Below, one piece after another: positions 38,901 to 55,844 of a stretch of 64,000 bases of DNA (position 1 is the first letter of the stretch; each line of letters starts with the position of its first letter). Below the pieces are notes generated by a model that was given only the letters and a program-made list of their open reading frames with translations, had not been told where the DNA came from and searched no databases. Made by a program: the position numbers and the translations under genes. The stretch comes from Syntrophales bacterium (GTDB lineage Bacteria > Desulfobacterota > Syntrophia > Syntrophales > PHBD01): assembly GCA_963668175.1 (NCBI GenBank), contig OY764159.1, forward strand, positions 3,040,001 through 3,104,000, given 5' to 3'.

Positions 38901-39632
38901 ATGTTAAAATTCGGTGGGATGGTGTTGGCGGCCATGGCATGTGGCGTTATTTTAATGACCGGCGGGCAGGCGTGGGCCGCGGACGAGGCCGCCAAGAAAG
39001 CGCAGGCGCCCCAAATGACCGACAAGGAAAAACTCAGCTATACCCTGGGCGTCAATACGGGAAAGAACATTCAGCAGCAGGCCATCGATATCGATCCCGA
39101 CCAGTTCTCGAAGGGCATGAAGGACGCCCTGTCGGGGGCGAAACCGGCCCTGACGGACGAAGAAATGCTCCAGTCCATCATGGCCCTGCAGAAGGACATG
39201 CAGGAAAAACAGGCGGCCAAAATGAAGGGCCTGGCAGAAGAGAACAAGAAGAAGGGCGAAGCCTTCCTGGCCGAAAACAAGAATAAGGAAGGGGTCAAAA
39301 CCCTGCCCAGCGGCCTTCAATACAAAATCATCAAGAACGGCAAAGGCAAGTCCCCGAAACTTACCGACACGGTAACGGCCAACTATAAAGGAACGTCGAT
39401 AGACGGTACGGAATTCGACAGTTCCTACAAGCGGGGCGAGCCCGCGAAGTTCCCCCTCAAAGGCGTCATCCCCGGCTGGATCGAGGCCCTTAAACTGATG
39501 AAGGTCGGATCGCAGTGGCAGATCTTCGTCCCGGCAAATCTCGGTTACGGCGAACGGGGTGCAAGTCCCGTCATCGGGCCTAACGAAACGCTGATTTTTG
39601 AAATCGAGCTTCTGAAGATCAGCTCGAAGTAG
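38901..39632 (+). CDS. FKBP-type peptidyl-prolyl isomerase (Mip/FkpA-like)
   Basis: Signal peptide; KLSYTLG, LPSGLQYK, FDSSYKRG, VIPGWIEAL, YGERG. Confidence 0.95.
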   Translation: MLKFGGMVLAAMACGVILMTGGQAWAADEAAKKAQAPQMTDKEKLSYTLGVNTGKNIQQQAIDIDPDQFSKGMKDALSGAKPALTDEEMLQSIMALQKDMQEKQAAKMKGLAEENKKKGEAFLAENKNKEGVKTLPSGLQYKIIKNGKGKSPKLTDTVTANYKGTSIDGTEFDSSYKRGEPAKFPLKGVIPGWIEALKLMKVGSQWQIFVPANLGYGERGASPVIGPNETLIFEIELLKISSK

Positions 39633-39821
39633 CCAAACGGCCGCTTATCCTATCCCTGAGAAATGACCTTCCCGGCGGCGGGCCGAAGCGGATTGGAGTG
39701 TTTTCCATATCCCCGGTTCGCCGCTGCAGACCGAAACCCCCAGCGTTCTTCAAGATCATATCCTTTGACATTGCCGGTGCATTCATTTATAACGCAATCA
39801 AAGGATAGTGATTTCAAAGAT

Positions 39822-40169
39822 ATGAAGATCACACACAAAATCTGGCTCGAGAAAGACGGCCAAATCGTCTTTGGCGAAGGCCGGGAAGAAATCCTCACGG
39901 CCGTCGCCGAATGCGGCAGCCTGTACAGTGCGGCCCGGCGTCTCAAAATGTCGTACCGTTCCGCCTGGGGTAAGATCAGGAAAGTCGAGGAGCGCCTCGG
40001 CCTGAAACTCGTCGAAGCACCCCAAGGCGGCCGGGGGCTGCAACTGACCCCCGAAGGAAAAATGCTGCTCGACGAATTTCATCGCCTGGAGGCGGATGTC
40101 CGCTCTTTTATCGGGAGCCGGTCATACAACTTCGCCCTAATCGAAAAACCCCCCGAAAACAGCAAATAA
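39822..40169 (+). CDS. modE: ModE-type winged-helix regulator, DNA-binding domain only
   Basis: KIWLE..FGEGR, GSLYSAARRLKMSYRSAW, GGRGLQLT; no TOBE/Mop domains; own promoter TTGACA-N17-TATAAC at 39765-39793. Confidence 0.82.
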   Translation: MKITHKIWLEKDGQIVFGEGREEILTAVAECGSLYSAARRLKMSYRSAWGKIRKVEERLGLKLVEAPQGGRGLQLTPEGKMLLDEFHRLEADVRSFIGSRSYNFALIEKPPENSK

Positions 40170-40253
40170 TTTCTTCCCTCCCCGGCCCCTCGTCCCGTCA
40201 CGCCCTTGATGTCTCCGGCTACGCCGATCCACCCCATTATGCTCGGCCGCACA

Positions 40254-40323
40254 TATATCAAAAGTGACATAACTATTTAATTTAATTATACTTCTTGACT
40301 TGCCGCCGATTCCTGTATACAAT
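40254..40323 (+). promoter_or_regulatory. ModE-like box plus sigma-70 promoter of the Mo-enzyme operon
   Basis: TATATC-N6-GACATA(AC) at 40254-40271; TTGACT-N17-TACAAT at 40295-40323. Confidence 0.65.
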
Positions 40324-40420
40324 ATTTTCCGCAATAGATATTCCGGGTCGGGGCGGTTTCGCCGTCTCCCGGCAGGCAATATCGACAAGCTTACACTTAT
40401 TTGGACAGGAGGTACGTTGT

Positions 40421-43000
40421 ATGGAGCATCGCCATGAAATGGACCGAAGAGGTTTCCTGAAGATCGCCGGCGCCGTGGGAATCGGCGCGGCGGCAACCGC
40501 TTTTCCCTTCAGGAATCTTCAGCAGGCCTGGGCTTTTGGAGAACATCCCCAGGAAAAACCGTCATATGTATACAAGAAGAAAGTGCCGCAGGTTTGCGCC
40601 CGTGCCTGCGAAGCGGATTGCGCCTATTATGTCGTCATGGGCGTAGACCCGGCAACGGGATTGGAAAGGGCCATCACCCTGGAAGGCCGTCCGGAGGACC
40701 CTGTCTCCCGCGGCAAGTTCTGCATCAAGGGCCTCGGTTTCGTCGACTCCGTCTACGATCCCGACCGCCTCATGGTCTCTCTCAAACGGACCAACCCGAA
40801 AAAGGGAACGGATGAGGACCCCGGCTGGGTGACGATGAAGACATCCGACGCCGTAAAGGAAGTCATTGAGGGTCTTAAGAAGGTGAAACGCGAAGAGATC
40901 CTTTTCGCCTCGCCCGGCGACCCCTATACGAACCGCCTCTGCCTGTCGCTCGGTTCCACGAGAAGCGACCAGCGGACGGAATGTTTCGGCACCCACTACT
41001 ACATCAACTGCCTGACGCTGACGAACCCGCCGAATAAATACTACATGAGCACGTACACGCCGAGCCATCACGTCTGCGGCTACGATTACGACAACGCCAA
41101 GTACCAGGTCTGGTTCGGCTTCGATTCGTTCTCCAAGTGCGGCAAGGCGGGCATGCTCAATCACTGGGCGACCGGCAAGAAGAACGGCGCCAAGATCGTC
41201 ATGTTCAACCCCGTCCGGACCCCGCTGTGCGACGGCTACGCCAGCGAATTTCATACCATCAAACCCGGCACGGATCTGGCGGTGGCCCTGGCCATGATCC
41301 AGATCATAACTTCCGGCAAGAAATACAACACCTCTTTCCTGAAGAAATATTCGGATGCCGCAGCCCTTGTCGACGTCAAGACCAAGATGACGATCAAGGG
41401 TGAAAACGACACCTTGCTCGCCTGGTGTGTCAAGCACAAGAAGGCCGAACCCATCGACGAATGTCACGAGCCGGCCCTGGGCGGCGGCCCCTTCAAAGTG
41501 ACGATCGGCGGAGAGACGGTGAATGCCAAACCCGTCATCGGGCTCCTTGCCGAATCGGTCAAGACCTGCACCCCCGACTGGGCGTCAAAAATCTCCGAAG
41601 TTCCGGCCAAGTCGATCCGCAAGATCGCCCTGGAGTTTGCCGCCGCGGCGCCGCGATCCTTCATTCCGACCTACAAGCGCGATGCCGCAGGCCCCAACTA
41701 CGCCAACAGCTGGCGGCTCCGCCATGCCATCAGCGTCCTGAACACGCTGAACGGCGCCATCGATCATGACGGCGGCGTGCTCCTGGTCCACGGAGTGAAA
41801 ATTCCCTGGCTGGAAGAAATGTACCCGCCGGCCGTACCGTTCCCCGAACAGCCCGCCGAACCGGTGGACTTCCGGAACGAGTTTCCCGTCACGGACAACA
41901 TATACCGTAAAAAGGACTTCTCCGCCCCCGGCCATTACGGCATGGTGGGTTGGGGTCTCTACAATACGAACCGGGCCAAGGTCATTTTCTTCCGCAATCC
42001 GCACCGGGGGCTTTTCGCCATGATCCAATCCCAGATGCTGGAGAAGGCTACGGATAAGATGCAGATGGTCGTCGACTGGAACCTCTACCTGGACGACCTG
42101 GGCTACTTCTGCGACTACGTCATCCCGGCGCCGCATCAATTCGAGGAAGCGAAACTCGACACCAGGCTCTACTATCCCAAAAATCCCTGTCTCGTCGGCG
42201 GTGCCCCCATCCAGAAATCGCCGGGCGACCAGATCGGCTGGGGCGGATTCGCCATGGCCATCGGCCTGGCCATGGCCCCCAAATACTGGACCACCGACGG
42301 CAGCGAAGATCCCGCGAAGAAGATCTCCACCAATATCGGCGATGTGGCCGTTAAGAACACCGGCGCCGGCGATAACACGGGCGACTTCATGAATAAGGGC
42401 GCGTTCTGGATCGACAAGAAGCCTTACGAGGATTACAAGCAGCTCGGCGAGATCGGGTACGGCAGGCCCAACGGACGCATCCGGATGTACATCGACGAAT
42501 TCGTTCCCGTCGGCCACGAGCCCCTTCCCAAATGGGCCGCACGCTGGCATACGTCCACCGGTCCCTATAAGTTCTCTTTGCTTATCACCCGCGCGCCCTG
42601 GTATATGCATGCCGATCCCAACTTCGTGAACAACGCCGTTCTCAGGGAAGCGACCGTGAGAAATCACATGGACTGCGTCTGGATGAACCCGGAGGCGGCC
42701 AAGAAGCTTGGTTTGCAGGAAGGCGACATGATCATTCTGGAGAACGACCCCGCCTTCATGAAGGTCCTCCCCAGGCCCCAGAAAGCCAAGCTTCACTTGA
42801 CGAAACGCATCACCCGGCAGGATTGCATCCTGACCTTCCACGGCATCGGTCACCGCGCCAAGAACCTGAAGGTTGCTAAGGATTTCGGTTACCGTGACGG
42901 CGATCTCATCCCCCAAAAGGATCCCAACATCGTGAAGAAGCACGATCCCACCGGGATGGGCTGGGTGGAAGACGTCTTCGTCAGTATCAAAAAAGCATAA
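40421..43000 (+). CDS. Tat-exported Mo/W-bisPGD oxidoreductase catalytic subunit, Psr/Phs/Arr-related
   Basis: DRRGFLK; CARACEADC..C; YDPDRL..LKRTNPKKG.DEDP; IKPGTD; WMNPEAA. Confidence 0.88.
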   Translation: MEHRHEMDRRGFLKIAGAVGIGAAATAFPFRNLQQAWAFGEHPQEKPSYVYKKKVPQVCARACEADCAYYVVMGVDPATGLERAITLEGRPEDPVSRGKFCIKGLGFVDSVYDPDRLMVSLKRTNPKKGTDEDPGWVTMKTSDAVKEVIEGLKKVKREEILFASPGDPYTNRLCLSLGSTRSDQRTECFGTHYYINCLTLTNPPNKYYMSTYTPSHHVCGYDYDNAKYQVWFGFDSFSKCGKAGMLNHWATGKKNGAKIVMFNPVRTPLCDGYASEFHTIKPGTDLAVALAMIQIITSGKKYNTSFLKKYSDAAALVDVKTKMTIKGENDTLLAWCVKHKKAEPIDECHEPALGGGPFKVTIGGETVNAKPVIGLLAESVKTCTPDWASKISEVPAKSIRKIALEFAAAAPRSFIPTYKRDAAGPNYANSWRLRHAISVLNTLNGAIDHDGGVLLVHGVKIPWLEEMYPPAVPFPEQPAEPVDFRNEFPVTDNIYRKKDFSAPGHYGMVGWGLYNTNRAKVIFFRNPHRGLFAMIQSQMLEKATDKMQMVVDWNLYLDDLGYFCDYVIPAPHQFEEAKLDTRLYYPKNPCLVGGAPIQKSPGDQIGWGGFAMAIGLAMAPKYWTTDGSEDPAKKISTNIGDVAVKNTGAGDNTGDFMNKGAFWIDKKPYEDYKQLGEIGYGRPNGRIRMYIDEFVPVGHEPLPKWAARWHTSTGPYKFSLLITRAPWYMHADPNFVNNAVLREATVRNHMDCVWMNPEAAKKLGLQEGDMIILENDPAFMKVLPRPQKAKLHLTKRITRQDCILTFHGIGHRAKNLKVAKDFGYRDGDLIPQKDPNIVKKHDPTGMGWVEDVFVSIKKA

Positions 43001-43015
43001 GCGAGGTGAACAACT

Positions 43016-43717
43016 ATGAAAGAATATGCCATTCTGCTCGACAATACCTTCTGCACCGGCTGCAACACCTGCAGTTACCGGTGTGTCCAGGAGTTCCGAT
43101 ATCACGATCAGGCGGCGAAAGGACTTTTCCGGACCTTCGTCACGATCAATGACGAAGGCCTCTATCATAAACGATGCATGCACTGCCTCGATCCGCAGTG
43201 TGTCAAGAACTGCCCCGTCAAGGCCCTGACGAAATCCGATTACGGCCCCGTTCTCTACAGCAGGGAGACCTGCATCGGCTGCCAGATGTGCACGAAGGTC
43301 TGTCCTTTCCACATCCCGCAGTTCGACGAAGCGACGAAGAAGATCGTCAAATGCAGCCTCTGCGCCCATCGTGTAGGCGACGGCAAACAGCCCGCCTGCG
43401 TCGAGGTCTGCCCGACCGGAGCGCTGCAATTCGGCGAATACCAAGCCATCAAGGATCAGGCACTGAAGCTGGCCAAGACGAAGAAGCTCAACCTGTATGG
43501 CTATGAGGAAAACGGCGGGACCCATCTCTTTGTCCTCGCCAAGGAGAATTTCGCAGCGGCCGGCTATCCGAAGGTCGCCAAACGCAAGATCAACGTGGGC
43601 GGCGTCAACCTCGGTGACGGCCTGACCGTTCCCGCCATGGCGGCGGCCATGGCCGCGACCGGTTTCAAGAAACTGGCCGACCGCAAAGACCGGATCGCCA
43701 AAGAAGAAAAGGAATAA
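43016..43717 (+). CDS. Four-cluster Fe-S electron transfer subunit (FdnH/HybA/DmsB-like)
   Basis: CTGCNTCSYRC, CMHCLDPQCVKNC, CIGCQMCTKVC, CSLC..PACVEVC; NGGTH; hydrophobic tail. Confidence 0.92.
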   Translation: MKEYAILLDNTFCTGCNTCSYRCVQEFRYHDQAAKGLFRTFVTINDEGLYHKRCMHCLDPQCVKNCPVKALTKSDYGPVLYSRETCIGCQMCTKVCPFHIPQFDEATKKIVKCSLCAHRVGDGKQPACVEVCPTGALQFGEYQAIKDQALKLAKTKKLNLYGYEENGGTHLFVLAKENFAAAGYPKVAKRKINVGGVNLGDGLTVPAMAAAMAATGFKKLADRKDRIAKEEKE

Positions 43718-43734
43718 GACGTTTAAGCTACGAT

Positions 43735-43766
43735 GACGGGCGGCATGATCGTGCCGCCCGTCTTTT
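43735..43766 (+). terminator. Rho-independent terminator
   Basis: GACGGGCGGCA/TGCCGCCCGTC stem followed by TTTT. Confidence 0.75.
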
Positions 43767-43831
43767 ATTCCCGCAATGAGAACCCTATTCGTCCGGTTGA
43801 CGCCGAACCGGAATCGAGGTAGAATACATCC

Positions 43832-44470
43832 ATGACTGCAATGAGCAACACCGATCGACTGCCCCATATCATGGCCCGGGCCGGGATCTTCCGCCATCTC
43901 GCCGACGGCTTCAATTACCCGGATGAGGTCCTTGTCCAGGCCCTTGCGGAAGGCGCTTACGCTGCAAACCTGGCCGACGCCCTGAAACGAACCGGTCTCG
44001 ATGCCGCCGCCGGCATTCTGGCCGATGCCGCCCCCGAGATGCCGGCAAGCCAGATCGATCTGGAGAAGGATTATACCTGGATGTGTTTCGCTTCGAAGCC
44101 GCGGCAGGTCTACCTTTTCGAATCGGTCTACCGCGAAGGCAAACTCCTTCAGGAATCCACCTTTCAGATCGCCAGACTCTATTACGAAGCGGGCCTGCAA
44201 TTGAGCGAGGCTTTCAAGCTGCCGCCGGACCATATCGCCGTGGAACTCGAATTCATGGCGTTCCTCTTCTTCAATGAAGCCGAGGCCGTCCGCGAAGGCC
44301 ATGCCGAGAAGGCGAACCTGGCGGTACGCCTGCAGGGCGAGGCCTTGCAGAAGCATCTCATGCCTTTCGGCCTGTCCGTCGCCGAAAGAATGGAAAAGCA
44401 CGCCAGGACCGTTTTCTATCGAACGTTGGCCCGGGTTCTCCGTGCCGTTCTGGAAGGCCCGGCCGTTTAA
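43832..44470 (+). CDS. TorD/DmsD family Mo-enzyme maturation chaperone
   Basis: ESVY, PPDHIAVELEFM. Confidence 0.9.
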   Translation: MTAMSNTDRLPHIMARAGIFRHLADGFNYPDEVLVQALAEGAYAANLADALKRTGLDAAAGILADAAPEMPASQIDLEKDYTWMCFASKPRQVYLFESVYREGKLLQESTFQIARLYYEAGLQLSEAFKLPPDHIAVELEFMAFLFFNEAEAVREGHAEKANLAVRLQGEALQKHLMPFGLSVAERMEKHARTVFYRTLARVLRAVLEGPAV

Positions 44471-44778
44471 CGCAGCCGCCGTCCGGATCCTCCTTGCCGT
44501 ATCCTGCGCCGGACCTTGTTCCGTCTTCCGCCGGGGAACGCCGCCGGACACATTGATCGTTATTCCAGCAAATATTCTTTGGGTTTCCGGAATATTAACG
44601 CCGCGATGCCCTGTACTCCGGTATCCGGCATACCCCTTACACGTTTCCCGCCCTATGGCTTTAACGATCTTTATTGCATCTGCCGTTATTCCTGCTATAT
44701 AATCTACATCAGTCGTCATGATCGGGATGTCCCGATCGTGTTTGACCCCATCGATCATCGAGAAGAGACAGCCAGGCC

Positions 44779-47700
44779 ATGCAGGAAACCGAACGACCAG
44801 CCAAGACGAAAGCCGTCTCCCGCCAGCGCCCGAAAGACGAATCCTCCCGGTCGGCGAAAGCCGTCACGGCACGGATGCCACGGCCGGGAGAGAAAGGCCT
44901 TCGCAAAGAGCCGCTGCTGGCGAAGACAAGGGATACAGGGTCCGGGGAGCCGAAACAGTCGGCGGCGGAACTGGAAGCGATCTTCGCCGCTCAGAGCGAC
45001 GCGGTGCTTCTGTACGACACCGGGATGAACGTCAGGAAGGCCAACCCGGTTTTCGCGTCCGTATACGGTTTCGATCCCGTCGGTCTTAACGTCCGCGAAA
45101 TCATCAAACGGGTTTCCTGCCGCTGGCTGGACGGACGGCCGTTCGACCTGGCGGATCAGCCCACGCCGCGGGCGTTGAAGGGCGAGAAAATCACCGGGGC
45201 CATATTCCAGGTGACACGCGGCGACGGGTCCGAGGCGGTCGTCGAAACATCTTCGGCGCCGGTCCTTGCGGGAGGCCGCATCGCCGGTTCCGTGACGGTC
45301 TGGCACGACATTTCGGCCATTAAACAGGCCGAAAACGGCCTGAAAGAGAGTGAAGAAAGACTGCGTCAGACGCAAATCTTCCTCGAAGAAGTGACCCGGG
45401 GAGCGAAGGTGCTGATCGCCACGGTGGACAGAGACTTTCGCTACACCTACTTCAACGAAGAACACCGACGGGAATTGAAACGCCTTACCGGCCTGGATAC
45501 AAGGATCGGCATGAGTCTGCATGAGGTTTTGGACGCTATGCCGGACCAGCGCCTGGCAGCATTTGACGTGTGGGGACGCGCTCTCAAGGGCGAGACGATT
45601 ATCCAGACGATGATGTTCGGCGACCCCGGACGCTATCGGAGATGGTACGAAACCCGCCACACGCCGATCCACGATGCCGACGGCGTCATCGTGGGCGCCG
45701 GGGAAGTCACTTCCGACATTACGGAATTGAAACAGGCGGAGGAGGTTTCCCGGACGGTCCTTCAGCGCTTCTTCACCATCCTTTCCAGCATCCACAGCGC
45801 CATACTCCTCGTCGATCAGGACGACCGCATCGAATACGCCAATCAGGCCTTCTGCGACTATTTCGCCCTGCCGGATAAGCCCGCCGAGCTGATCGGCCTG
45901 ACCGCAATGGAAACAACGTCGAGAATCAAGCAAGGCTACCTTCATCCCGACAGGGAAGTCGCCCGCATCCGCGAAATCGTCGAGAAGAGAGAACCGGTCC
46001 GCGACGAAGAAATTGCCATGCGGGACGGCCGGACGTGCCTGCGGGATTTCATCCCCGTCGAAATCGCCGGGGAAATGCACGGGCGGCTCTGGCATCACTA
46101 CGACATTACCGGGCGGAAGCAGGCCGAAGAGGCCCTCGCGGAGAGCGAAAAACGCTACCGGACGGTGGCGGATTTCACATACGACTGGGAATTCCTGCTT
46201 GGCCCCGACGGCAGGTTTTCATACGTCTCCCCGTCGGCCGAGCGGATCGTCGGCCGCCGGATCCCTATGGACATAACGGCCAAAGAATGGTTGAGGCTGA
46301 CCGTTCACCCGGAGGACCTGGATAAGCGCCTCCTGCATCTGAAGGAAGAATTGGAAGGCCGGGGCCCCAGCGAGCTTGAGTTCCGTATCGTCCGGCCGGA
46401 CGGCGACGTCCGCTGGCTGCACCACGTCTGCCAGCCCATTCACGACGATCGGGGCGTCTTTCTAGGCAGCCGGGGCTCGAACCGGGACATCACGGAACGC
46501 CGCCATACCGACGAGAACCTGCGCGAAACGCGCCAGCGCCTCGAAACCCTCGTGGACAGCATCTCCGACGGCTTCTACGCCCTGGATCGGGATTGGCGTT
46601 TCACCCATGTCAACGACGCGGCCCTCTCCCACATGGGCAGAACGAAGGAAAACGTTCTCGGTCTGACGCTTTTCGACGTCTTCCCCAAAACCCGGGGCAG
46701 CGCCGTCGAGGAAGAATACCGGCGCGCGATGGAAAGCCGGGAACCGCGCCACTTCGAAAACCCGTCGCTGATCTCAGGGCGCCTCCTCGAAATCCACGCC
46801 TACCCGGGCCGCGATATTCTCAGCGTCATCTTCAGGGACGTCACGGAGCAGGAACGCATGGCGGCGGCCCTCAGGGAAAGCGAAGCGCGTTACCGCCTCC
46901 TGGCCGACACGGCCGGACGCCTGCTGCGTTCGGAAGACCCCCAGGCGATTGTGGAAGGCCTGTGCCGGGGCGTCATGGCGCATCTCGACTGCCAGACGTT
47001 TTTCAATTTTCTTCTGGACGAGCGCCAAGGCAGGCTGCACCTGAACGCCTGCGCCGGAATCTCCCGCGAAGAGGCCCGTGCCATCGAGTGGCTGGATTTC
47101 GGCGTCGCCGTCTGCGGTTGCGTCGCCCGGGATGCGCAACGCATCATCGCCGAGGATATCCAGAACACACCCGACGAACGCACCGTCCTCGTCAAATCCT
47201 ACGGCATCCAGGCCTACTGCTGCCACCCCCTCATGGCGCAGGACCGCCTCATCGGCACCCTCTCCTTCGGCACGAAGACGCGGCCGCATTTTACCCCCGA
47301 GGAAGTGGAAGTGATGCGCACGGTCGCGGACCAGGTCGCCGTGGCCATGCAGCGCAAGCAGGCCGAACGCTACCTCCAGGAAGCAAACGACGAACTGGAG
47401 CGGCGCGTTACTGAAAGAACGCAAGAGCTGCAGGCCGCATCCGTCTATACGCGACGCCTTATCGAAACCAACCTCGATCCCCTGGTGACGATCAGCGCGG
47501 AAGGGAAGATTACGGACGTCAACGCCGCCACGGAGCTTGCCACGGGCCACTCTCGAAGCGAACTTCTCGGCTCTGACTTTTGCGATTATTTCACCGAGCC
47601 GGAAAAGGCAAGGATCGGATACACAAGAGTCTTCCTCGAAGGATTTGTCCGGGACTACTCCCTGGCCATCCGGCACCGGTCCGGGCGGATCACCGAGGTC

Positions 47701-48591
47701 ATCTATAACGCCTCGGTTTACAAAAACGAGAAGGGAGAGATCCTGGGGGTCTTCGCCGCGGCGCGCGACGTGACGGAATTGAGGCAGGCCCAGCTCGAGC
47801 TGCGCCAGTCCTACGAGGAATTGGAGCGACGTGTCGAAGAGCGGACCGCCGACCTGAAAGTGAGGACGGAACAGCTGGAGGCGGCCAACAAGGAACTGGA
47901 GAGCTTCAGCTATTCCATCTCCCACGACCTCCGCGCCCCCCTCCGGGCCATCGACGGTTACGCCCGCATGCTCCTCAAAAAACACGGGGATTCGTTCGAC
48001 GAGGAATCGTCCCGCCGCTTCAATACCATCCGCAGCAACGCCCAGATGATGGGTCAGCTCATCGACGATCTCCTCTCCTTCTCCCGCCTGAGCAGGGCGC
48101 GCCTCTCCCTGGCGGACCTGGACATGACGGGTCTGATCGCGGAGGTGTGGGGGGAATTGACGGAAAACAGCGAACGCCGTCCCGAATTTCTGTACGACGG
48201 CATTCCCCCGTGCATGGGCGACCGGGCGCTCATCAGACAGGTCCTTTCAAACCTTCTGTCCAATGCCGTCAAGTTCTCGTCCAAAAACGACCGGGCTTGC
48301 ATAGAGATGGGCGGCCGGCGGCAGGGTAGCGAAAACGTCTACTACGTCAGGGACAACGGCGTGGGTTTCGACATGCAGTATCACGACAAGCTCTTCGGCG
48401 TCTTCCAGCGCCTCCACGGGGCCGACGAATTCGAAGGCACGGGCGTGGGGCTCGCCATCGTCCAGCGGATCGTCCATAGGCACGGCGGCCGCGTCTGGGC
48501 CGAATCGAAGGAGAACGAAGGGGCGATTTTCTTCTTTTCCCTTCCCGTATCGGATACGAAGCAAGACCCGTCGTGGGATCGCGGCGTCTGA
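44779..48591 (+). CDS. Cytoplasmic multi-PAS/GAF sensor histidine kinase
   Basis: About six PAS/PAC units, GAF (CGCVARDA), SYSISHDLRAPLRAI, NLLSNAVKF, DNGVGF, GTGVGLAIV. Confidence 0.92.
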   Translation: MQETERPAKTKAVSRQRPKDESSRSAKAVTARMPRPGEKGLRKEPLLAKTRDTGSGEPKQSAAELEAIFAAQSDAVLLYDTGMNVRKANPVFASVYGFDPVGLNVREIIKRVSCRWLDGRPFDLADQPTPRALKGEKITGAIFQVTRGDGSEAVVETSSAPVLAGGRIAGSVTVWHDISAIKQAENGLKESEERLRQTQIFLEEVTRGAKVLIATVDRDFRYTYFNEEHRRELKRLTGLDTRIGMSLHEVLDAMPDQRLAAFDVWGRALKGETIIQTMMFGDPGRYRRWYETRHTPIHDADGVIVGAGEVTSDITELKQAEEVSRTVLQRFFTILSSIHSAILLVDQDDRIEYANQAFCDYFALPDKPAELIGLTAMETTSRIKQGYLHPDREVARIREIVEKREPVRDEEIAMRDGRTCLRDFIPVEIAGEMHGRLWHHYDITGRKQAEEALAESEKRYRTVADFTYDWEFLLGPDGRFSYVSPSAERIVGRRIPMDITAKEWLRLTVHPEDLDKRLLHLKEELEGRGPSELEFRIVRPDGDVRWLHHVCQPIHDDRGVFLGSRGSNRDITERRHTDENLRETRQRLETLVDSISDGFYALDRDWRFTHVNDAALSHMGRTKENVLGLTLFDVFPKTRGSAVEEEYRRAMESREPRHFENPSLISGRLLEIHAYPGRDILSVIFRDVTEQERMAAALRESEARYRLLADTAGRLLRSEDPQAIVEGLCRGVMAHLDCQTFFNFLLDERQGRLHLNACAGISREEARAIEWLDFGVAVCGCVARDAQRIIAEDIQNTPDERTVLVKSYGIQAYCCHPLMAQDRLIGTLSFGTKTRPHFTPEEVEVMRTVADQVAVAMQRKQAERYLQEANDELERRVTERTQELQAASVYTRRLIETNLDPLVTISAEGKITDVNAATELATGHSRSELLGSDFCDYFTEPEKARIGYTRVFLEGFVRDYSLAIRHRSGRITEVIYNASVYKNEKGEILGVFAAARDVTELRQAQLELRQSYEELERRVEERTADLKVRTEQLEAANKELESFSYSISHDLRAPLRAIDGYARMLLKKHGDSFDEESSRRFNTIRSNAQMMGQLIDDLLSFSRLSRARLSLADLDMTGLIAEVWGELTENSERRPEFLYDGIPPCMGDRALIRQVLSNLLSNAVKFSSKNDRACIEMGGRRQGSENVYYVRDNGVGFDMQYHDKLFGVFQRLHGADEFEGTGVGLAIVQRIVHRHGGRVWAESKENEGAIFFFSLPVSDTKQDPSWDRGV

Positions 48592-48762: not shown

Positions 48763-48842
48763 TCCGTGCGCCAGGAATAATCAAGCCCCTTCGGAACGCC
48801 CGCAGAACGGGACTTGCCGCGCGACAAGATTTTTCTTTCCTT

Positions 48843-48858
48843 TGGCACCGAGATTGCT
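48843..48858 (+). promoter_or_regulatory. Sigma-54 promoter of spy/cpxP-like gene
   Basis: TGGCACCGAGATTGCT. Confidence 0.78.
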
Positions 48859-48897
48859 ATAGTGTTTTTAGCAACCCAGCGAGGACAGAGTATCGTC

Positions 48898-49443
48898 ATG
48901 AAAAGAACCGGCCTGATGGCAACCCTATTCCTGTTGTTCTTCCTCTGTTCCCATGCCGGCGCCGCCGAATGGGGAAGGGGACGGGGCGGTCCTCCCGGCC
49001 AGGGAGGGGATTTTACGGCCATTACGGGCCTCAATCTTACAGCCGAGCAGATTAACGCCATCAAAGCCCTCAGACAGGCCCATCTCACGGACATCAGGCC
49101 CCTTCAGGACAAGATGATGGCGAAACGCGAAGAACTGAAAGCGTTGTGGCTTGAAACCTCCCCGAATCGCGAAAAGATCGCGGTCGCCCAGGAGGAAACG
49201 GACAAGCTGCGGATGGAGATGCACGACAAGATAGCCGTCTACCGCCTGTCCGTCTACAGAATCCTGACGCCGGAACAGCAGGAGAAGGTCCGCTCCGCCG
49301 TCGAGGAAAGGACATTCCGCCGCGGCCCCCGATGGGGGCGGGAACGGCAGGACCGTCCGGGAATGGGGTGGGGCCAGGAACAAGCGGATCGCCCCAGTCC
49401 GCGGCCCGGGCAGGATCGTCCAGACAGGACAGGATACCGATAG
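48898..49443 (+). CDS. Spy/CpxP/ZraP family periplasmic chaperone
   Basis: Signal peptide; two LTxxQ motifs (LNLTAEQ, ILTPEQ). Confidence 0.87.
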   Translation: MKRTGLMATLFLLFFLCSHAGAAEWGRGRGGPPGQGGDFTAITGLNLTAEQINAIKALRQAHLTDIRPLQDKMMAKREELKALWLETSPNREKIAVAQEETDKLRMEMHDKIAVYRLSVYRILTPEQQEKVRSAVEERTFRRGPRWGRERQDRPGMGWGQEQADRPSPRPGQDRPDRTGYR

Positions 49444-49514
49444 GGCATGATACCGCCGGATATCCCGTTAATGTCACGATACATCCGTGACAATAGTAAC
49501 CCCGCCGCAGCGCT

Positions 49515-52500
49515 TCAGAGCTTTTCAATCGTTGTTTCCGCGCCCGCCCGTTCCGGGACGCGTCCATTCCTGTACAATTCGTAATAAAGCAGCGGCACGG
49601 CGATGAGGGTCAGCACCGTCGAGGTCACGGCGCCGAACATCATGGCGATGGCGAGGCCCTGAAAAATCGGATCGAAGACCATGACGAAAGAGCCCACAAC
49701 GACCGCCGCCGCCGTGAGGACGATGGGCCGGAAGCGGACGGCCCCGGCCTTGAGAAGGGCGCTGCGAAGCTCCCCCGTATCCCGCCATTCCAGTTCGATG
49801 AAGTCCACAAGCAGGATCGAATTGCGGACGACGATTCCCGCAAGCGCAATGAATCCGATCATCGAGGTCGCCGTGAAGAAGGCCCCGAAAAGCCAGTGTC
49901 CCGGCAGAATCCCCACGAGGGTCAGGGGGATGGGGGCCATGATGACGAAGGGCGTGAGGAAGCTCCGGAACCAGGCCACGACCAGGATGTAGATGATGAC
50001 GAGGACCACGGCAAAGGCCGCGCCGAGGTCCCGGAATACCTCGTAGGTGATGTGCCATTCGCCGTCCCACTTCATGGCGTATCGGTCTTCCAGCCACGGG
50101 GCGGCGGAAAAGTACTGTTTCAGGCCGTAACCCTCGGCAAGCTTGAGCCCCGCAATCGCCTCCTTCATTTTAAGAATCGCATAAACGGGGCTCTCTTCCG
50201 TTCCGGCGACGTCGCCCGTCACATACGTGACCTTTTTCAGATTCTTGTGATAGATCGACTTCTCCTCCGTCCCCTGCCTGATGTCGACGAGTTCGCCCAG
50301 CGAGACGGCCTTTCCCGAAGGCGTCGGGACCGTAAGCGACTTGAGGGCGTTAATGTCCGCCCGCTTGTCCAGGGGCATCCGCAGGAATATCTCCACGGGC
50401 TCCTTCTCACGGTCGAAGTGTACCAGTCCGGCCGCCGCCCCCGAAAGGGCGGTCTGAAGCGTCCGGGCGATCGCCTCCGTCGTGATGCCGTTTCCAGCGG
50501 CCTTCTCCCTGTCCACCGCAAAGAAGAGCTTCCGCTGGTCCGCCTCAACCATCCAGTCCACGTCGACGACGCCGCCCGTCTTGGCGAAGATATCCCGCAC
50601 CTGACGTGCGATTTCGATCTGGCGGGACGTCTCGGGTCCGTAGATTTCCGCCACGAGCGTCGAGAGGACCGGGGGTCCCGGGGGGATTTCCGCCACCTTG
50701 AGGCGGGCGCCGTAACGGTCGCCGATATTCCTGAGTTCCGGCCGCAGGCGCTTGGCGATGTCGTGGCTCTGGGCCTTCCGGTCGCCCTTGGCCGCGAAGT
50801 TGACCTGGATATCGGCGACGCTGCCGCCCGAGCGGAGGAAGTAATGGCGCACCAGCCCGTTGAAGTTATAGGGGGAGGCCGTCCCGATATAGGCCTGGTA
50901 GTCCGTCACTTCCGGCACGGTCTTCAGGTACTCGGCCATCGCCCGTGTAACGGCCGCCGTCTCCTCCAGAGTCGAACCCTCGGGCATGTCGATAACCAAC
51001 TGGAGTTCGCTCTTGTTGTCGAAGGGCAGCATCTTCATCGTCACCGCCTTCAGGGGTACGAGAATCAGGGCTACAAGCAGAAGGCCGAGGATGACCGCAA
51101 GGGCCGTCAGGCGCTTCTTCCGGGCATCGATGAGGGGACCGAGCCATTTCTCGTAGAAGCGTGCCAGTCCCTGCCCTTCCCCGCCGTGGCCGCCGTGGCT
51201 CGCGCCCCGCAGCACGATGAAGGCCAGCCAGGGACTCACGATAAAGGCCACGAGAAGCGAGAAGAGCATGGCGGCCGACGCCCCGACGGGGATGGGCCGC
51301 ATGTACGGCCCCATGAGGCCGGAGACGAAGGCCATGGGGAGAAGCGCGGCGATGACGGTGAACGTCGCCAGGATCGTGGGGTTGCCGACCTCGTCCACGG
51401 CCCGGACCGCCGTTTCGGTATCGACCTTCCCCATGAGGAAATGGCGGTTGATGTTTTCCACGACGACGATGGCGTCGTCGACGAGGATGCCTATGGAAAA
51501 GATGAGGGCGAAAAGCGTCACGCGGTTCAGGGTGTAGCCGTAGAGGTAATTGATGAGGAGGGTGAGGGCCAGCGTGACGGGAACGGCGACGGCCACGACG
51601 ACCGACTCCCGGCGCCCCAGGGCCAGGGCGATGAGGACGATCACGGAGATCGTGGCGATGAGCATATGTTCCAGGAGCTCGTCCGATTTTTCCTTGGCCG
51701 TCTCCCCGTAGTTCCGGGTGACGGTGACCTCCACGTCTGCCGGGATGAGCCCGCCCTTGAGGGCTGCAACCTTCTTCAGGGCCTCCTCGGCCACGACGCT
51801 TGCATTCGCGCCCTTCTGTTTGGAGACGGCGATGGTCACCGCCTCGGCCTGACCGGCGGCGTCGCCCTTAAGGCCTTTCTTCGCCGCGGCGGGCCCCAGG
51901 CCCATGAAGACATAATTCGCCGCTTCCTCCGGGCCGTCGGCTACTTTTGCCACGTCCTTGAGATAGACGGGGCGTCCGCCCGAAACGGAGACGACGAGAT
52001 CCCCCACTTCCTTCGCGTCCTTGAAGAACCGGCCCGTCTCGACGATCGTCTCCCGGTTCCCCGCCGGGAAGGACCCTGAGGGCACGACAATGTTGGCCTC
52101 CCTGAGGCCGTTCATGATCTGGAAGGCCGAAAGCCCGTACGCCCGCAGGCGCTGGGGGTCCAGGACGACGCGCACCTGCCGCCGCTGGCCGCCGATGACG
52201 GAAAACTCCGAAACGTTGGCGTCCTTCTTGAGTTCGCCCGCAAGCGAAAGCGCTATCCGTCGCAGCTCGTAGCCCGTATACTGGGCCTGCCTGCTCCAGA
52301 GGGTGAGGGCCAGCACGGGGACATCGTCGATGGACTTGGGCTTCACGAAGGGCTGGGAGACGCCGGGGGGGATCAGGTCGTAATGGGACATGAGCTTGTT
52401 GTAGACCCTGACGAGGCTGTCCTCCATGTTTTCGCCCACGTAGAAACGGACGATAGTCAGGTTCCCGCCCGGCCTGGCGATGGAATAGACGTATTCTACG

Positions 52501-52745
52501 CCCTTGATTTCCCAGAGGAGCTGCTCCATGGGCACCGTCACGCGCTCCTCCACCTCCCGGGGCGTCGCCCCCGGATAGGCGACGAAGACGTCGATCATGG
52601 GGACGACGATCTGGGGTTCTTCTTCGCGGGGGGTGACGACAACGGCGAAGACGCCGAGAAGAACGGCGGCGATGACGAGAAGGGGCGTCAGCTTCGACCG
52701 GATGAAGGCGCCGGCTATTTTTCCCGAAATCCCGACTCCCTTCAT
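49515..52745 (-). CDS. RND efflux permease (AcrB/CusA superfamily)
   Basis: [39 protein letters not shown]. Confidence 0.92.
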
Positions 52746-53854
52746 CGGCCCTTCCCTCCGTCGCCGCTCCCGCCGACGATTCCGCCGTCCACGGCCTTTT
52801 CGACGCCGTCCGTCACGATCCGCTCGCCCGGATTGAGGCCGGATAAAATTTCCATGCCGCTCGGATAGACGGTACCGGTGCGGACAAGACGGTAGGTGAC
52901 GACGCCCTGGCCGTCGACGGCGTAGACGCCCGTCAACTGGCCCTTCGCGACGACCGCCTTCCCGGGTACGAGAAGGGCGTCTTTCGCGCCGAGCGTGATC
53001 CGGATGCGGGCGAAGAGACCGCTCCGCGCCTGGTCGTCCCTGATGCCGACCTTGACGATACGGGTCCGTGACAGGGGATCGACGGCGGGGAGAACTTCCC
53101 GCACCTTTCCCGAAATCCGCCGGTTGCCTTCGGCGAGCAGGATGTCGGCCGGCATGCCGGCTTTTACGCGGTTGGCGAGGCTTTCGTCCACGGCCGTCTC
53201 GACGTAGGAGGCGCCGCCGCTCTCGATGACGAAGAGGGGCATCCCGGGAGAGGCCATACTGCCCAGTTCGATGCGTTTTTCCGTGATCCTGCCGGAGACG
53301 GGGGCATGGATTTTCGTGAAGGAACGGCCCGTTTCGGCCTCCTCGGCCATGGCTCTTGCCCGCTCGTATTCCGCCTCGGCCACTTTCTTCTGCGTTTCGA
53401 CCTGGTCCATCTCCTGCTGCGACAGGGCCTTTTCGTTATAGAGGTTCCGGTAGCGCTGCCACGTGGTCTCCGCCATGGCCTTATTCTCCTTCGCTGCAGC
53501 CACGGCCATGGACGCGGCCCGGACCCTCTGTCCCGCGTCGCGGTCGTCGATAGTCAAAAGCAGCTGGCCCGCCCGGACGCTGTCACCTTCCCTCACCAGA
53601 AGGGATGTTACTGTCCCCATCGCCTTGCTCGCGACGAGGCTCGTCCGCTCGGACCGCACCGTTCCCGTGGTCTCGTAGATATCGTCCACCCGGGAGAGTT
53701 CGACGGCGGCGACGGTGACGCCCGTAATGGCGGGCCGCTTCACGTCACCCTTTTCTCCTGTCCCCTGGCAGCCCTGAGCCAGCAAGGCCAGCACAACTGC
53801 CGCAGGGAGAAAGCCGGACAACATGCTGCGAAAGCCGGTTTGTCCCTTAACCAT
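52742..53854 (-). CDS. RND periplasmic adaptor subunit
   Basis: Lipobox [25 protein letters not shown]. Confidence 0.9.
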
Positions 53855-53880
53855 CGGTCTTCATATCCTCCGTTTCGCAC

Positions 53881-55245: not shown

Positions 55246-55268
55246 GAACGCACCCTCCATTCGTTTCG

Positions 55269-55463
55269 TCAGCATTTTCTCGCCACACCGAGTTTTTCCA
55301 GGATATTTTCCATCAGGCACCATTTCGTGAAAGCCGACTGAAGAAGATTGAGCCCGACAAAGGCCGTAAAAAAGAGCCAATACCGGTGATGGAAATAACT
55401 CAGTGCGAGGGAGACCAGGATAAATGTCCCGGCGATGGCCCGAATCATCTCTTCCATCTTCAT
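55269..55463 (-). CDS. DUF2892 (YgaP-like) small membrane protein
   Basis: RAIAG, FVGLNLLQSAFTKWC; AAGGAGG RBS. Confidence 0.9.
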   Translation of the reverse strand: MKMEEMIRAIAGTFILVSLALSYFHHRYWLFFTAFVGLNLLQSAFTKWCLMENILEKLGVARKC

Positions 55464-55844
55464 AGGTCTTTCCTCCTTTGCAGATGAGTCCTTCTCTGTG
55501 ATTCGTCCCGCCTGCGACACCGAACCTCCGCTTCATGAGGGCCGCGGACGATGCCCGTTCCAGGCTGAACCCCGTTTCCGCCCGATATAACGCCGTCAGT
55601 TATTTGCTATTCTACCATAATCATTTTCCGTCGGCAGTCAATAATTGCGAAAATAGAATTTGTATGTAAAGGATTGCCTCTCCCGGACGGTGCGACACGC
55701 CGGCGTCGGACTGAGTATGGTACGATTGCAGTTATTTCCGGAAAACGAGGAGTCCAAGCCTGTCGCCCGAATTTTATGAGCACGAAGATTTACCGGCACG
55801 GGCAACGCGGCTGACCTTGTCTTCCTGGCTCTTTCCGTTTCTTC

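Follow-up and report, generated by a model that had tools for sequence, protein, structure and literature searches.

A putative tail-anchored molybdenum or tungsten oxidoreductase from an uncharacterised bacterial branch of the polysulfide/thiosulfate-reductase group

Among described members of the DMSO reductase superfamily, PsrABC of Thermus thermophilus (2vpw) is the best solved and PhsABC of Salmonella (NF012032) the best curated relative of the enzyme reported here. In Shewanella, the quinol dehydrogenase that serves ArrAB is the tetrahaem CymA, which is encoded elsewhere, and formate dehydrogenases carry a His directly after the residue that binds the metal. According to PMC10924467, a tail-anchored Fe-S protein exported by Tat has as its partner either an FdnI-like cytochrome b or a quinol oxidase of the HybB/NrfD type, and CbcL is presented in bioRxiv 10.1101/2022.08.31.506072 as an inner-membrane bc-cytochrome and menaquinone oxidase.

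The window, i.e. the whole stretch of 64,000 nucleotides that was analysed, contains at 40421..44470 a three-gene unit encoding alpha, beta and a TorD/NarJ-type chaperone, all on the + strand, together with the following features:

39813..40169, + strand: ModE-N-like winged-helix regulator, no molybdate-binding domain
40238..40272, + strand: motif resembling an operator, in part palindromic (TATGY-N8-RCATATRY-N8-RCATAA), immediately before the -35 box on its 5' side
40295..40323, + strand: sigma-70-like promoter TTGACT-17-TACAAT, score 10/12
40421 (ATG) to 43000 (stop), + strand: alpha, predicted Tat-exported Mo/W-bis-pyranopterin catalytic subunit, 859 aa
43016..43717, + strand: beta, four-cluster ferredoxin-type subunit, 233 aa, PF13247 at 87.3 bits
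43735..43762, + strand: terminator-like hairpin (12 pairs, 9 G-C) and T-run in the beta/chaperone gap
43797..43825, + strand: promoter-like site TTGACG-17-TAGAAT 5' of the chaperone gene, 10/12, consensus match only
43832..44470, + strand: TorD/NarJ/DmsD-family maturation chaperone, 212 aa, PF02613 at 86.9 bits

By its sequence, alpha is a member of a tight, uncharacterised bacterial branch of the polysulfide/thiosulfate-reductase group. Its best NCBIfam model is PhsA, with 177 bits against a cut-off of 694 and against 240-627 bits for the unnamed neighbours, while the ArrA model gives 80 bits (cut-off 1600). Indeed, alpha reaches no NCBIfam equivalog or curated family cut-off, and neither does any of its 60 nearest representatives. 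PsrA (2vpw) is the best solved relative whether the search starts from the single sequence (E 5.8e-40), a clade profile (6e-60) or a bridging profile (5e-108). The relatives fall into 104 clusters with at least 53% identity, followed by an archaeal pair at 36-38% and then by proteins at 32% or less; among 1.84 billion representatives, the bacterial clade corresponds to one representative (1514 bits), the archaeal sister to one other (1148 bits), with 520 bits for the full-length protein that comes next. Both trees recover the clade as monophyletic (SH-aLRT 100) on a long stem of 0.73-0.76, give it the Nitrososphaerales pair as its sister (SH-aLRT 100) and nest the two among unnamed Psr/Phs-like proteins; E. 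coli DmsA, TorA, NarG and FdnG lie outside this cloud. No publication on the clade was found in the literature searched. The Arr/Psr-like scaffold and uncharacterised clade proposed in the original prediction are thus borne out. The hosts are mainly syntrophic and sulfate-reducing anaerobes, with a strong enrichment in syntrophs from three phyla, between which the identity is at least 60%.

All the alpha motifs of that prediction are found at the places it gave: a Tat motif (DRRGFLK) at the N terminus, the CARACEADC of the FS0 cluster at residues 59-67 (C59/C63/C67, with C101 in FCIKG), KRTNPKKG at 122, DEDP at 131, ASPGDP at 163 and Cys188 within residues 178-192 (GSTRSDQRTECFGTH). The Pfam TAT_signal model gives 19.6 bits, below its cut-off of 22.7, and an RR.[FL][LI] motif occurs in 86 of the 98 full-length clade members. 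Cys188, already proposed as the Mo ligand, is invariant in 83/83 aligned sequences and is likely the metal ligand: in profile alignments it shares a column with Cys173 of PsrA and with the corresponding Cys in both ArrA and acetylene hydratase, a match resolved by these profiles only, as a single-sequence alignment sets PsrA Cys173 opposite the non-conserved Cys197. Ligand and pocket assignments in alpha are based on sequence alignment alone, and the metal may be Mo or W, between which the sequence does not discriminate.

The Cx3Cx3C spacing of FS0, the insert of 12-14 residues after the ligand and SPGDP are clade-derived traits. The spacing is present in 97/98 clade members, against Cx2Cx3C in both archaeal proteins and in all 14 nearest relatives, and is a one-residue insertion originating within the clade. 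The DmsA-type spacing noticed earlier is therefore real and clade-specific (97/98 vs 0/16 nearest relatives), but is no sign of kinship with DmsA, which lies outside the cloud in the tree. The insert specific to the clade spans about residues 193-206, an NPPN insert is found in 98/98 members and SPGD[PA] in 86/98; as had been claimed, ASPGDP stands in place of the ArrA RGRY region in the alignment. Of 104 clade-specific positions in alpha, several affect residues conserved in the neighbours (R->P165, H->Q184, Y->R529, R->G594, R->W709, Y->S719), and the surroundings of the ligand gain aromatic or polar residues (Y193, Y194, H216, W709). Since several basic residues of the Psr-like neighbours are thus replaced, the substrate need not be anionic. 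The residue after Cys188 is a Phe, and the KRDAAGPNY motif, which holds the residue aligned with PsrA Arg332, is common to the clade and the nearest Psr-like proteins.

In beta there are four Cys groups and no signal peptide, and its best NCBIfam matches (HybA, HmcB and FDH-beta) are all below cut-offs. Its residues 3-215 align with E. coli FdnH, tail included (33% identity, E 2e-34), in agreement with the FdnH/HybA-like subunit with a hydrophobic tail described previously. The C terminus is a conserved Ala/Gly-rich hydrophobic tail followed by KK..RR, kept in 14/15 aligned relatives; its hydrophobicity is weak, with a Kyte-Doolittle value over 19 residues of 1.13 for the window and of 1.1-1.85 for relatives. 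The chaperone, which among NCBIfam models scores highest with TIGR03482 for type II DMSO-reductase chaperones (75 bits, cut-off 152), occupies the last third of the interval 40421..44470 and was absent from the original prediction, as was the upstream ModE-N-like regulator. Alpha, beta and, 3' of beta, the chaperone gene occur together in 60/70 clade loci, and several of the remaining 10 end at a contig edge. The terminator placed after beta corresponds to the hairpin and T-run at 43735-43762, and a hairpin of -10 kcal/mol or lower before a T-run is found at the same place in 19/61 units (60 loci and the window).

The regulator ORF is open from 39663, with the Met at 39813 as its likely start; it matches PF00126 HTH_1 (Pfam, 51.5 bits) and, below the cut-off of 98.5, the ModE repressor domain TIGR00637 (NCBIfam, 61.8 bits). 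A homologue lies directly 5' of alpha in 12 related loci. The operator-like motif occurs once in the window, with none expected from 100 shuffles, and recurs exactly in 10/76 loci, each time 130-250 bases ahead of the alpha start and each time in a locus that encodes a ModE-N-like regulator. Furthermore, a TTGACA box is conserved across the aligned upstream regions (n=11), and the AGGAGG ribosome-binding site 5' of alpha is invariant in 11/11 aligned relatives. In the neighbourhoods of related loci, no conserved substrate-related gene adjoins the unit. Regulators with PAS sensors are frequent neighbours there.

Searches of the 64-kb window yielded neither an NrfD gene nor an FdnI-type cytochrome b nor a multihaem cytochrome c; for NrfD the search was a tblastn with the NrfD of one relative, which limits its sensitivity. 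The lack of a quinone-reactive subunit, as originally proposed, thus holds for the window but not as a family trait, since partner genes lie beside the unit in 17/70 related loci. An FdnI-type cytochrome b with a multihaem cytochrome c is found near the unit in 13/70 (12 loci by HMM and one more by Pfam), mostly directly 3' of the chaperone gene, as in the Syntrophomonas loci, where an FdnI-like cytochrome b follows the unit; an NrfD gene lies immediately 5' of alpha in 4/70; and the flanks of 53/70, many of them short, hold no partner gene. Multihaem cytochromes occur in 14 related loci. The cytochrome b either has a pentahaem cytochrome c beside it or forms a fusion with a domain of 11-19 haems, and five loci encode a protein of 712-924 aa in which 11-19 CXXCH motifs accompany a cytochrome b domain of the FdnI/HydC type. 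The electron partner, previously given as unknown, is therefore partly predictable from these genes.

On balance, we consider it fairly probable that the unit encodes a periplasm-facing, tail-anchored alpha-beta oxidoreductase of respiratory type, with a Mo/W-bis-pyranopterin centre, a new substrate and modular quinol partners. The chaperone would hold the alpha signal peptide until cofactor insertion, after which alpha-beta would be exported folded via Tat, beta riding along, and the beta tail would insert into the membrane. Electrons would travel between menaquinone and the metal centre by way of FS0 and the clusters of beta. Their route into or out of the quinone pool would be a module with genes of its own, which in relatives is an FdnI-type cytochrome b accompanied by a multihaem cytochrome c, or else a protein of the NrfD type; in this genome the module would have to lie outside the window, unless beta couples to another complex. 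A role as terminal reductase of a small periplasmic substrate is the most likely one for the enzyme. For this substrate kinship would suggest, as a default guess, an inorganic sulfur, chalcogen or metalloid compound, and the remodelled active site indicates one other than those used by PsrA, PhsA or ArrA.

That PsrA leads among solved relatives and PhsA among NCBIfam models, that the clade nests in the Psr/Phs-like cloud, that KRDAAGPNY with its Arg332-aligned residue is common to the nearest Psr-like proteins and that an NrfD gene is kept at 4 loci would all suit a divergent polysulfide/thiosulfate reductase, a PsrAB/PhsAB orthologue having lost its linked PsrC gene; some hosts do reduce sulfur compounds, such as Thermodesulfovibrio (PMC5165239). 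We hold this to be unlikely, given the PhsA score of 177 bits (240-627 in unnamed neighbours, cut-off 694), the long private stem (0.73-0.76), the altered FS0 spacing and 12-14-residue insert, the replacement of six neighbour-conserved residues (P165, Q184, R529, G594, W709, S719) and the Pro165 opposite PsrA His145. Moreover, many clade hosts are syntrophs with no known respiration of sulfur compounds.

The loss of basic residues and the gain of Y193, Y194, H216 and W709 around the ligand could also point to an organic, uncharged substrate used as electron sink at the membrane's outer face (for example phenolic dehydroxylation, S-/N-oxide). Record titles trace many hosts to methanogenic consortia that degrade hydrocarbons or aromatics, PAS-sensor regulators are frequent nearby, language-model features place MopB clusters of Actinomycetota nearest (score 0.98, a lead only), and periplasm-facing Tat catechol dehydroxylases with an Fe-S partner and membrane anchor support respiration (PMC7028382, PMC12771579). 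Such dehydroxylases are, however, defined as nearer to acetylene hydratase than to any other family (PMC7028382), which sets them apart from a clade nearer to PsrA than to acetylene hydratase (365 vs 196 and 206 vs 113 bits), and no conserved aromatic-catabolic gene is found near related loci; an organic substrate thus seems doubtful. An oxidative role (donor:quinone or donor:cytochrome, on the pattern of FdnGHI or Arx), or else a part in an outlet of reverse electron transport in syntrophy, appears quite improbable, with alpha far below the formate dehydrogenase cut-offs (TIGR01553 55/814, TIGR01591 64/666), FdnG outside the cloud and, after the ligand Cys, a Phe where formate dehydrogenases have a His. 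In its favour, beta and gamma in the Syntrophomonas loci have the architecture of formate dehydrogenase-N, since beta is FdnH-like with a tail anchor and the cytochrome b is of the FdnI kind. Syntrophs of three phyla, with at least 60% identity between them, are also strongly enriched among the hosts, and according to PMC6895022 formate dehydrogenases that face outwards and are linked to quinone have a central place in syntrophy.

The terminal reductase with modular partners that we favour combines features of several known systems. With PsrABC and PhsABC it shares a Tat-exported alpha, an N-terminal FS0 cluster, a four-cluster beta and, in 4/70 clade relatives, an NrfD-type subunit; the ligand position is also common (Cys188 of alpha, Cys173 of PsrA), and Lys419 provides a basic residue at the position of PsrA Arg332. 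On the other hand, FS0 is Cx3Cx3C instead of Cx2Cx3C, alpha carries the 12-14-residue insert after the ligand and a segment (316-372, about 57 residues) missing from PsrA and the nearest Psr-like proteins, Pro165 aligns with PsrA His145, and beta has a C-terminal tail anchor, with no PsrC gene in the window. Shewanella ArrAB (6cz7) is likewise a two-subunit periplasmic enzyme with its quinol dehydrogenase encoded elsewhere; the ArrA segment MRTNPKKGRDQDP matches KRTNPKKGTDEDP of alpha and the ligand Cys position is common, but SPGDP replaces the RGRY region and ArrA ranks below PsrA in all three solved-structure searches. ArrB is not known to have a tail anchor.

In E. coli FdnGHI (1kqf), FdnH is matched by beta over its whole length, tail included, and the signal-less beta would similarly travel with the Tat-signal-bearing alpha; however, alpha is not a formate dehydrogenase (55 vs 814 for TIGR01553, 64 vs 666 for TIGR01591), and there is no gamma subunit in the window, the cytochrome b of relatives coming with a pentahaem cytochrome c or as a fusion with an 11-19-haem domain. 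Beta also resembles the HybA/HmcB type of tail-anchored Fe-S proteins, for which pairing rules are given in PMC10924467. The fusions of multihaem and cytochrome b domains in 5 related loci, none of them in the window, resemble Geobacter CbcL by description. Finally, the x3-x3 spacing of FS0 recalls E. coli DmsABC, residues 350-372 of alpha align with 353-383 of the type II enzyme PcrA, and among curated models the one for chaperones of type II enzymes (NarG, PcrA, EbdA) fits the chaperone best, whereas the tree keeps DmsA, TorA and NarG apart from the cloud to which the clade belongs (98 SH-aLRT), alpha scores far below the cut-offs of TIGR02166 (79 vs 778) and TIGR03479 (71 vs 985), and its ligand is a Cys where DmsA and the type II enzymes have Ser or Asp.

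The unit is a real and well-delimited feature, whose genes and elements lie at the following positions of the window:

39813-40169, ModE-N-like regulator gene (winged-helix part of ModE only), directly 5' of the unit
40238-40272, operator-like motif TATGY-N8-RCATATRY-N8-RCATAA, one occurrence (0 expected in 100 shuffles)
40421-43000, + strand, alpha, the molybdoenzyme catalytic subunit, 859 aa; twin-arginine motif DRRGFLK at the N-terminus, CARACEADC at residues 59-67 with the fourth Cys at 101, KRTNPKKG at residue 122 with DEDP at 131, ASPGDP at residue 163, GSTRSDQRTECFGTH at residues 178-192
43016-43717, + strand, beta, the Fe-S subunit, 233 aa
43735-43762, strong terminator-like hairpin of 12 pairs with a T-run in the gap between the beta and chaperone genes, followed by a promoter-like site
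43832-44470, + strand, TorD/NarJ-family chaperone gene, 212 aa (PF02613 86.9 bits, cut-off 22.2)

Two observations support the start of alpha: all 11 aligned upstream regions have the AGGAGG site without change, and its relatives are equally long. All the motifs that the original prediction had read in alpha were found at the residues it gave. The third gene of the interval had been left unnamed; its product carries the Pfam Nitrate_red_del domain and reaches no NCBIfam equivalog. An antisense ORF (41585-44758, minus strand, 1057 aa) was considered as a gene and rejected as a shadow frame of G+C-rich DNA; that shadow ORFs turn up opposite the alpha, beta and chaperone genes in other loci too reflects nothing more than the conservation of the coding strand.

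Examination of the active-site region by alignment points to Cys188 as the likely metal ligand, as had been proposed. This residue is invariant in the 83 sequences of the alpha alignment (A2), it occupies the column of the conserved Cys of 14 of 14 Psr-like proteins and, in profile alignments, it stands opposite Cys173 of PsrA, the Cys of the SSVC motif of ArrA and the Cys of the YMC motif of acetylene hydratase, all of them metal ligands. Cys197 or Asn202 would be the ligand according to single-sequence alignments to PsrA and PcrA, in which the region is shifted; this reading was rejected because position 197 is variable (70 Cys, 22 Ser, 2 Thr, 1 Ala, 1 Asn and 2 unmatched by the pattern, n = 98) and because the whole segment is missing from the archaeal sister, a pair of Nitrososphaerales proteins, and from the outgroups. 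Since the stretch YYINCLTLTNPPNK, of 12-14 residues, is absent from the archaeal sister and every outgroup, it is regarded as an insert right behind the ligand.

The DmsA-type spacing of the N-terminal Fe-S cluster (FS0) proved to be real, Cx3Cx3C occurring in 97 of 98 clade members, with Cx2Cx3C in both archaeal and all 14 nearest proteins; Cx3Cx3C alone was found in only 1 of 126 full-length representatives. Furthermore, the FS0 hairpin of the clade has a five-residue addition, and SPGD[PA] is found in 86 of 98 members, Pro165 aligning with His145 of PsrA and with the RGRY region of ArrA, where the original prediction had placed ASPGDP. On the alignments, the Cx3Cx3C spacing, the FS0 addition and SPGD[PA] are taken to be derived traits of the bacterial clade. 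Altogether, 104 positions are clade-specific, with a residue that at least 95% of the clade shares and that the 14 outgroup sequences practically lack. Among these positions, the outgroups have Arg at P165 (10/14), His at Q184 (14/14), Gly at H216 (13/14), Tyr at R529 (13/14), Arg at G594 (11/14), Arg at W709 (10/14) and Tyr at S719 (11/14). PsrA Arg332 aligns with Lys419 of a shared KRDAAGPNY motif; roles have been ascribed to both His145 and Arg332 of PsrA. A segment of about 57 residues (316-372), whose end aligns with PcrA 353-383, is common to alpha and the archaeal sister and is lacking in PsrA, ArrA and the nearest Psr-like proteins.

A word-indexed search retrieved 104 clusters (P0001-P0104) with 53-100% identity to alpha, below which come the two Nitrososphaerales proteins (36-38%) and then Psr/Phs-like proteins at no more than 32%; source names for the clade proteins are generic only. 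Several Pfam domains of the C2H2 zinc-finger type occur in one of these entries (P0097, 942 aa, 60% identical to alpha), a probable assembly chimera, which was excluded from alignments and trees. In an exhaustive search of 1.84 billion representatives at the 50% identity level, the whole bacterial clade is one representative (1514 bits) and the archaeal sister another (1148 bits), followed by a few fragments and, as the next full-length protein, a match of 520 bits. Of the 60 nearest full-length representatives, not one passes an NCBIfam cut-off; PhsA is the top listed model for 55 of them (240-627 bits) and ArrA for one, and four have no NCBIfam match at E 1e-70 or better. On plasmids, tblastn retrieved nothing close to alpha, the best matches having 24-28% identity over part of the protein.

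Phylogenetic analysis relied on two IQ-TREE trees (LG+G4, short search, SH-aLRT only) with rows hand-picked from the cluster and exhaustive searches, fragments below 650 aa being left out. In the 78-row tree the bacterial clade is monophyletic (SH-aLRT 100), its stem amounting to 0.73 changes per site and its inner branches to 0.05-0.5; the archaeal pair is its sister (100), and both are nested among unnamed Psr/Phs-like representatives. The same picture emerges from a 54-row tree with E. coli NarG, DmsA, TorA and FdnG added (L077-L080), in which the stem is 0.76, DmsA, TorA and NarG split from the whole cloud (98) and FdnG lies at its unresolved base, the exact placement of FdnG and NarG being unsure because both are long branches. 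The comparison with reference sets suggested by the original prediction is thereby answered for DmsA, TorA and NarG, which fall outside the cloud, but not for characterised Psr, Arr, Ttr and Srr enzymes or dehydroxylases, which are not among the rows, labels being NCBIfam scores and solved-structure ranks. That the clade is uncharacterised agrees with the curated cut-offs, none of which is reached, and with the literature: searches of open-access papers and bioRxiv, including PMC10100899, PMC7331816, PMC5165239, PMC6895022, PMC10689502, bioRxiv 10.1101/197269 and bioRxiv 10.64898/2026.08.18.745454, gave no description of it, and the Dethiosulfatarculus proteins mentioned in PMC12771579 are xanthine-oxidase-family homologues, not alpha.

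A scan of species-representative genomes gave 76 loci, L001-L070 belonging to the clade, L071 to the archaeal sister and L072-L076 to Psr-like proteins. According to the record titles, the hosts comprise Syntrophaceae, Syntrophales, Smithella, Syntrophorhabdaceae, Desulfomonilia, Desulfarculia including the isolate Dethiosulfatarculus sandiegensis, Desulfobacula, Desulfotignum, Nitrospirota, Acidobacteriota, Syntrophomonas, Syntrophaceticus, Thermacetogenium and Clostridia DTU068. The genes for alpha, beta and the chaperone occur together in 60 of the 70 clade loci, several of the other ten stopping at a contig edge, and clustering of the neighbouring ORFs of all loci detected nothing besides this trio in more than 20 loci. 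The recurrent neighbours are a sigma-54 activator with PAS domains (20 loci), histidine kinases, response regulators and, in 12 loci, the ModE-N-like regulator; around the trio, only the partner modules and the regulators are conserved.

The original prediction had stressed the lack of a quinone-reactive subunit. Indeed, no quinone-reactive module is found within the 64 kb of the window, but such a module accompanies the unit in at least 17 of the 70 related loci, a lower bound because many loci have short flanks; the idea of a missing partner is to be refined in this sense. Downstream of the chaperone gene, seven Syntrophomonas loci encode a pentahaem cytochrome c, an FdnI-like cytochrome b and ResB; five loci (L019, L020, L028, L050, L066) encode a protein of 712-924 aa combining 11-19 CXXCH motifs with a cytochrome b domain, which an HMM built from the Syntrophomonas proteins detects (E ~1e-40); in L054 a cytochrome b lies between two multihaem cytochromes; and in L031, L038, L039 and L043 an NrfD gene ends about 15 bases 5' of alpha. 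The synteny comparison thus yielded the trio and these partner modules but no clue to the substrate, the neighbours being varied regulators, differing transporters and unrelated genes.

Three peculiarities of individual loci deserve mention. In Dethiosulfatarculus sandiegensis, two separate stretches (L062, 5722-6681 and 6712-7569) encode the PAS and the AAA+/HTH part of the sigma-54 activator, while in a Desulfarculia locus (L030) the same PAS sigma-54 activator is one gene of 611 aa upstream of alpha; the split may be a frameshift or sequencing error. In two loci titled Nitrospirota/Nitrospiraceae (L001, L044), alpha is 80-81% identical to that of the window, as close as in Syntrophaceae MAGs (L002-L004), with which they also have the regulator and operator in common; such closeness points to recent transfer or to faulty binning or labelling. 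Finally, in the archaeal sister locus (L071, 7299-10460, a Nitrososphaerales MAG) the chaperone gene precedes alpha and the contig ends before any beta gene appears; the archaeal alpha keeps Cx2Cx3C, has no insert after the ligand and possesses the ~316-372 segment.

Beta has no signal peptide and displays four Cys groups and a four-cluster ferredoxin fold. Its residues 3-215 align with E. coli FdnH, tail included (33%, E 2e-34), whereas the alignment with DmsB is confined to the ferredoxin core, and all NCBIfam scores are under cut-off (HybA 128 vs 263). Some 15 residues rich in Ala and Gly, ahead of the positive cluster KK..S.RR, make up the tail. It is only weakly hydrophobic and is kept in all but one of 15 aligned relatives, the exception being an ORF that is cut short. 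The FdnH-wide alignment, the conserved tail and the hairpin with its T-run agree with the description of beta as an FdnH/HybA-like protein with a hydrophobic tail, followed by a terminator. According to Palmer and colleagues (PMC10924467), formate dehydrogenase bears the signal on its catalytic subunit and the C-tail on its Fe-S partner, and the partner of Tat tail-anchored Fe-S proteins, which beta resembles and whose C-terminal transmembrane helix its tail may represent, is an FdnI-related cytochrome b or a HybB-like quinol oxidase. The third Cys group is incomplete in three beta genes of Acidobacteriota and Nitrospirota (L037, L047 and L029, about 10590-11300), reading, for example, GKKVAAACPF or DKKCVAACPF instead of CxxCxxCxxxCP as elsewhere, and these proteins may bind three clusters rather than four.

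Regarding regulation, a three-part motif beside the -35 box is common to 11 upstream regions taken from loci that encode the ModE-N-like protein. This operator-like motif is exact in 10 of 76 loci, 130-250 bases 5' of the alpha start (for instance L001 7834-7868, L002 2681-2715 and L007 7756-7790), and only in loci that also encode the ModE-N-like regulator. The regulator corresponds to the HTH part of ModE only (118-168 aa; TIGR00637 61.8 vs 98.5), and Pfam detects no molybdate-binding Mop domain in it, full ModE having two at the C-terminus. Because a hairpin with a T-run recurs 3' of beta (19 of 61 units), the chaperone gene is suggested to be partly uncoupled from alpha-beta. No Rfam riboswitch was found in the window at gathering thresholds or in 39600-44900 at E up to 1, and the 5' leader hairpin is no better than those of shuffled sequences (z -0.96). 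After a gap of 308 bases from the chaperone gene, the window encodes a cytoplasmic sensor kinase of 1270 aa (44779-48591) with at least five PAS domains, GAF and HisKA/HATPase; at the same site, relatives encode different signalling proteins with many PAS domains (in L007, HD-GYP response regulators). Elsewhere in the window, a CpxP/Spy-like periplasmic protein (Metal_resist/LTXXQ) adjoins a divergent RND efflux set of AcrB-like, HlyD-like and outer-membrane factor genes (48814-55536), and there is a second AcrB-like gene pair (11877-18127).

Mo/W-bisPGD enzymes set the range of inorganic and organic compounds available to anaerobes for respiration. Assembly and export of the alpha-beta pair would follow the steps established for Tat-dependent molybdoenzymes and their chaperones, and the neighbours in 17 relatives together with the type of beta suggest a connection to the quinone pool. 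As to the substrate, kinship favours a sulfur, chalcogen or metalloid compound, but two features, the missing conserved Arg and His residues and the insert next to the ligand, speak against polysulfide, thiosulfate or arsenate in the manner of the known enzymes; rival readings are an organic substrate without charge and an oxidative or syntrophy-linked role. A further reading would make the clade a horizontally shared periplasmic Mo/W enzyme linked to syntrophy, a so far unrecognised extracytoplasmic outlet or inlet for electrons in at least three phyla of obligate anaerobes, wired to quinones by interchangeable bc-cytochrome/NrfD modules, and possibly reducing a diffusible shuttle or a carbon or sulfur compound traded with partners. 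We consider this further reading improbable; in its favour are hosts, by record titles and source names, such as Syntrophales/Smithella, Syntrophorhabdaceae, Syntrophomonas, Syntrophaceticus, Thermacetogenium and Thermodesulfovibrio, identity of at least 60% across hosts and an active site that, by its predicted residues, would be unlike that of every characterised relative.

Methanogenic digesters, aquifers and sediments are common sources of the clade, which combines identity of at least 60% across Thermodesulfobacteriota, Bacillota, Nitrospirota and Acidobacteriota with a private set of changes in the active site. The clade probably stands for a reaction that today's metabolic reconstructions do not contain; they would label it a generic molybdopterin oxidoreductase or, wrongly, a thiosulfate/polysulfide reductase. 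Cultured carriers appear to exist, namely Dethiosulfatarculus sandiegensis SPR (L062) and Thermodesulfovibrio species (cluster P0080). Furthermore, the changing membrane partners offer a natural example of a catalytic alpha-beta module re-plugged into different quinol dehydrogenases.

Comparison with known families places alpha in the MopB superfamily (PF01568 28.4, cut-off 26.8), the two other MopB Pfam domains being slightly under cut-off (PF04879 21.7 vs 22.7, PF00384 19.1 vs 24). PsrA comes first in every search of solved structures, whether with the single sequence (2vpw, E 5.8e-40), with the clade profile (E 6e-60, then PcrA, acetylene hydratase and ArrA) or with a profile including Psr-like bridging sequences (E 5e-108, against 8e-68 for ArrA and 8e-57 for acetylene hydratase); it thus outranks acetylene hydratase, which served in place of Dadh as the proxy for the catechol dehydroxylase/acetylene hydratase group, in all three. 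Alpha reaches no curated NCBIfam model; the Arr/Psr-like scaffold foreseen from the sequence is supported. From PsrA/PhsA, alpha differs by the PhsA equivalog score (NF012032, 177.5 bits vs 694), by CARACEADC (Cx3Cx3C) in place of Cx2Cx3C at FS0 and by the lack of an NrfD-type PsrC/PhsC subunit gene within the window, 4 of 70 related loci having one. It falls short of the ArrA equivalog (NF041714, 80.2 vs 1600) and lacks the (R/K)GRY motif that defines that family. Its sole agreement with DmsA and the type III enzymes is the FS0 spacing: the DmsA/YnfE subfamily model is not reached (TIGR02166, 78.6 vs 777.7), a Cys and not a Ser stands at the ligand position, and E. coli DmsA and TorA branch outside. 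Likeness to type II (Nar/Pcr/Ebd/Ser) is partial and limited to residues 350-372, which align with PcrA, with no Asp ligand, a score of 71.3 against 984.75 (TIGR03479) and NarG outside the cloud. The formate dehydrogenase equivalogs are likewise not reached (TIGR01591 63.6 vs 666, TIGR01553 55.2 vs 814), and FdnG lies outside the Psr/Phs-like cloud that holds alpha, at its unresolved base. The DMSO reductase superfamily has many unnamed branches, and the alpha unit is an uncharacterised variant of this known kind of enzyme.
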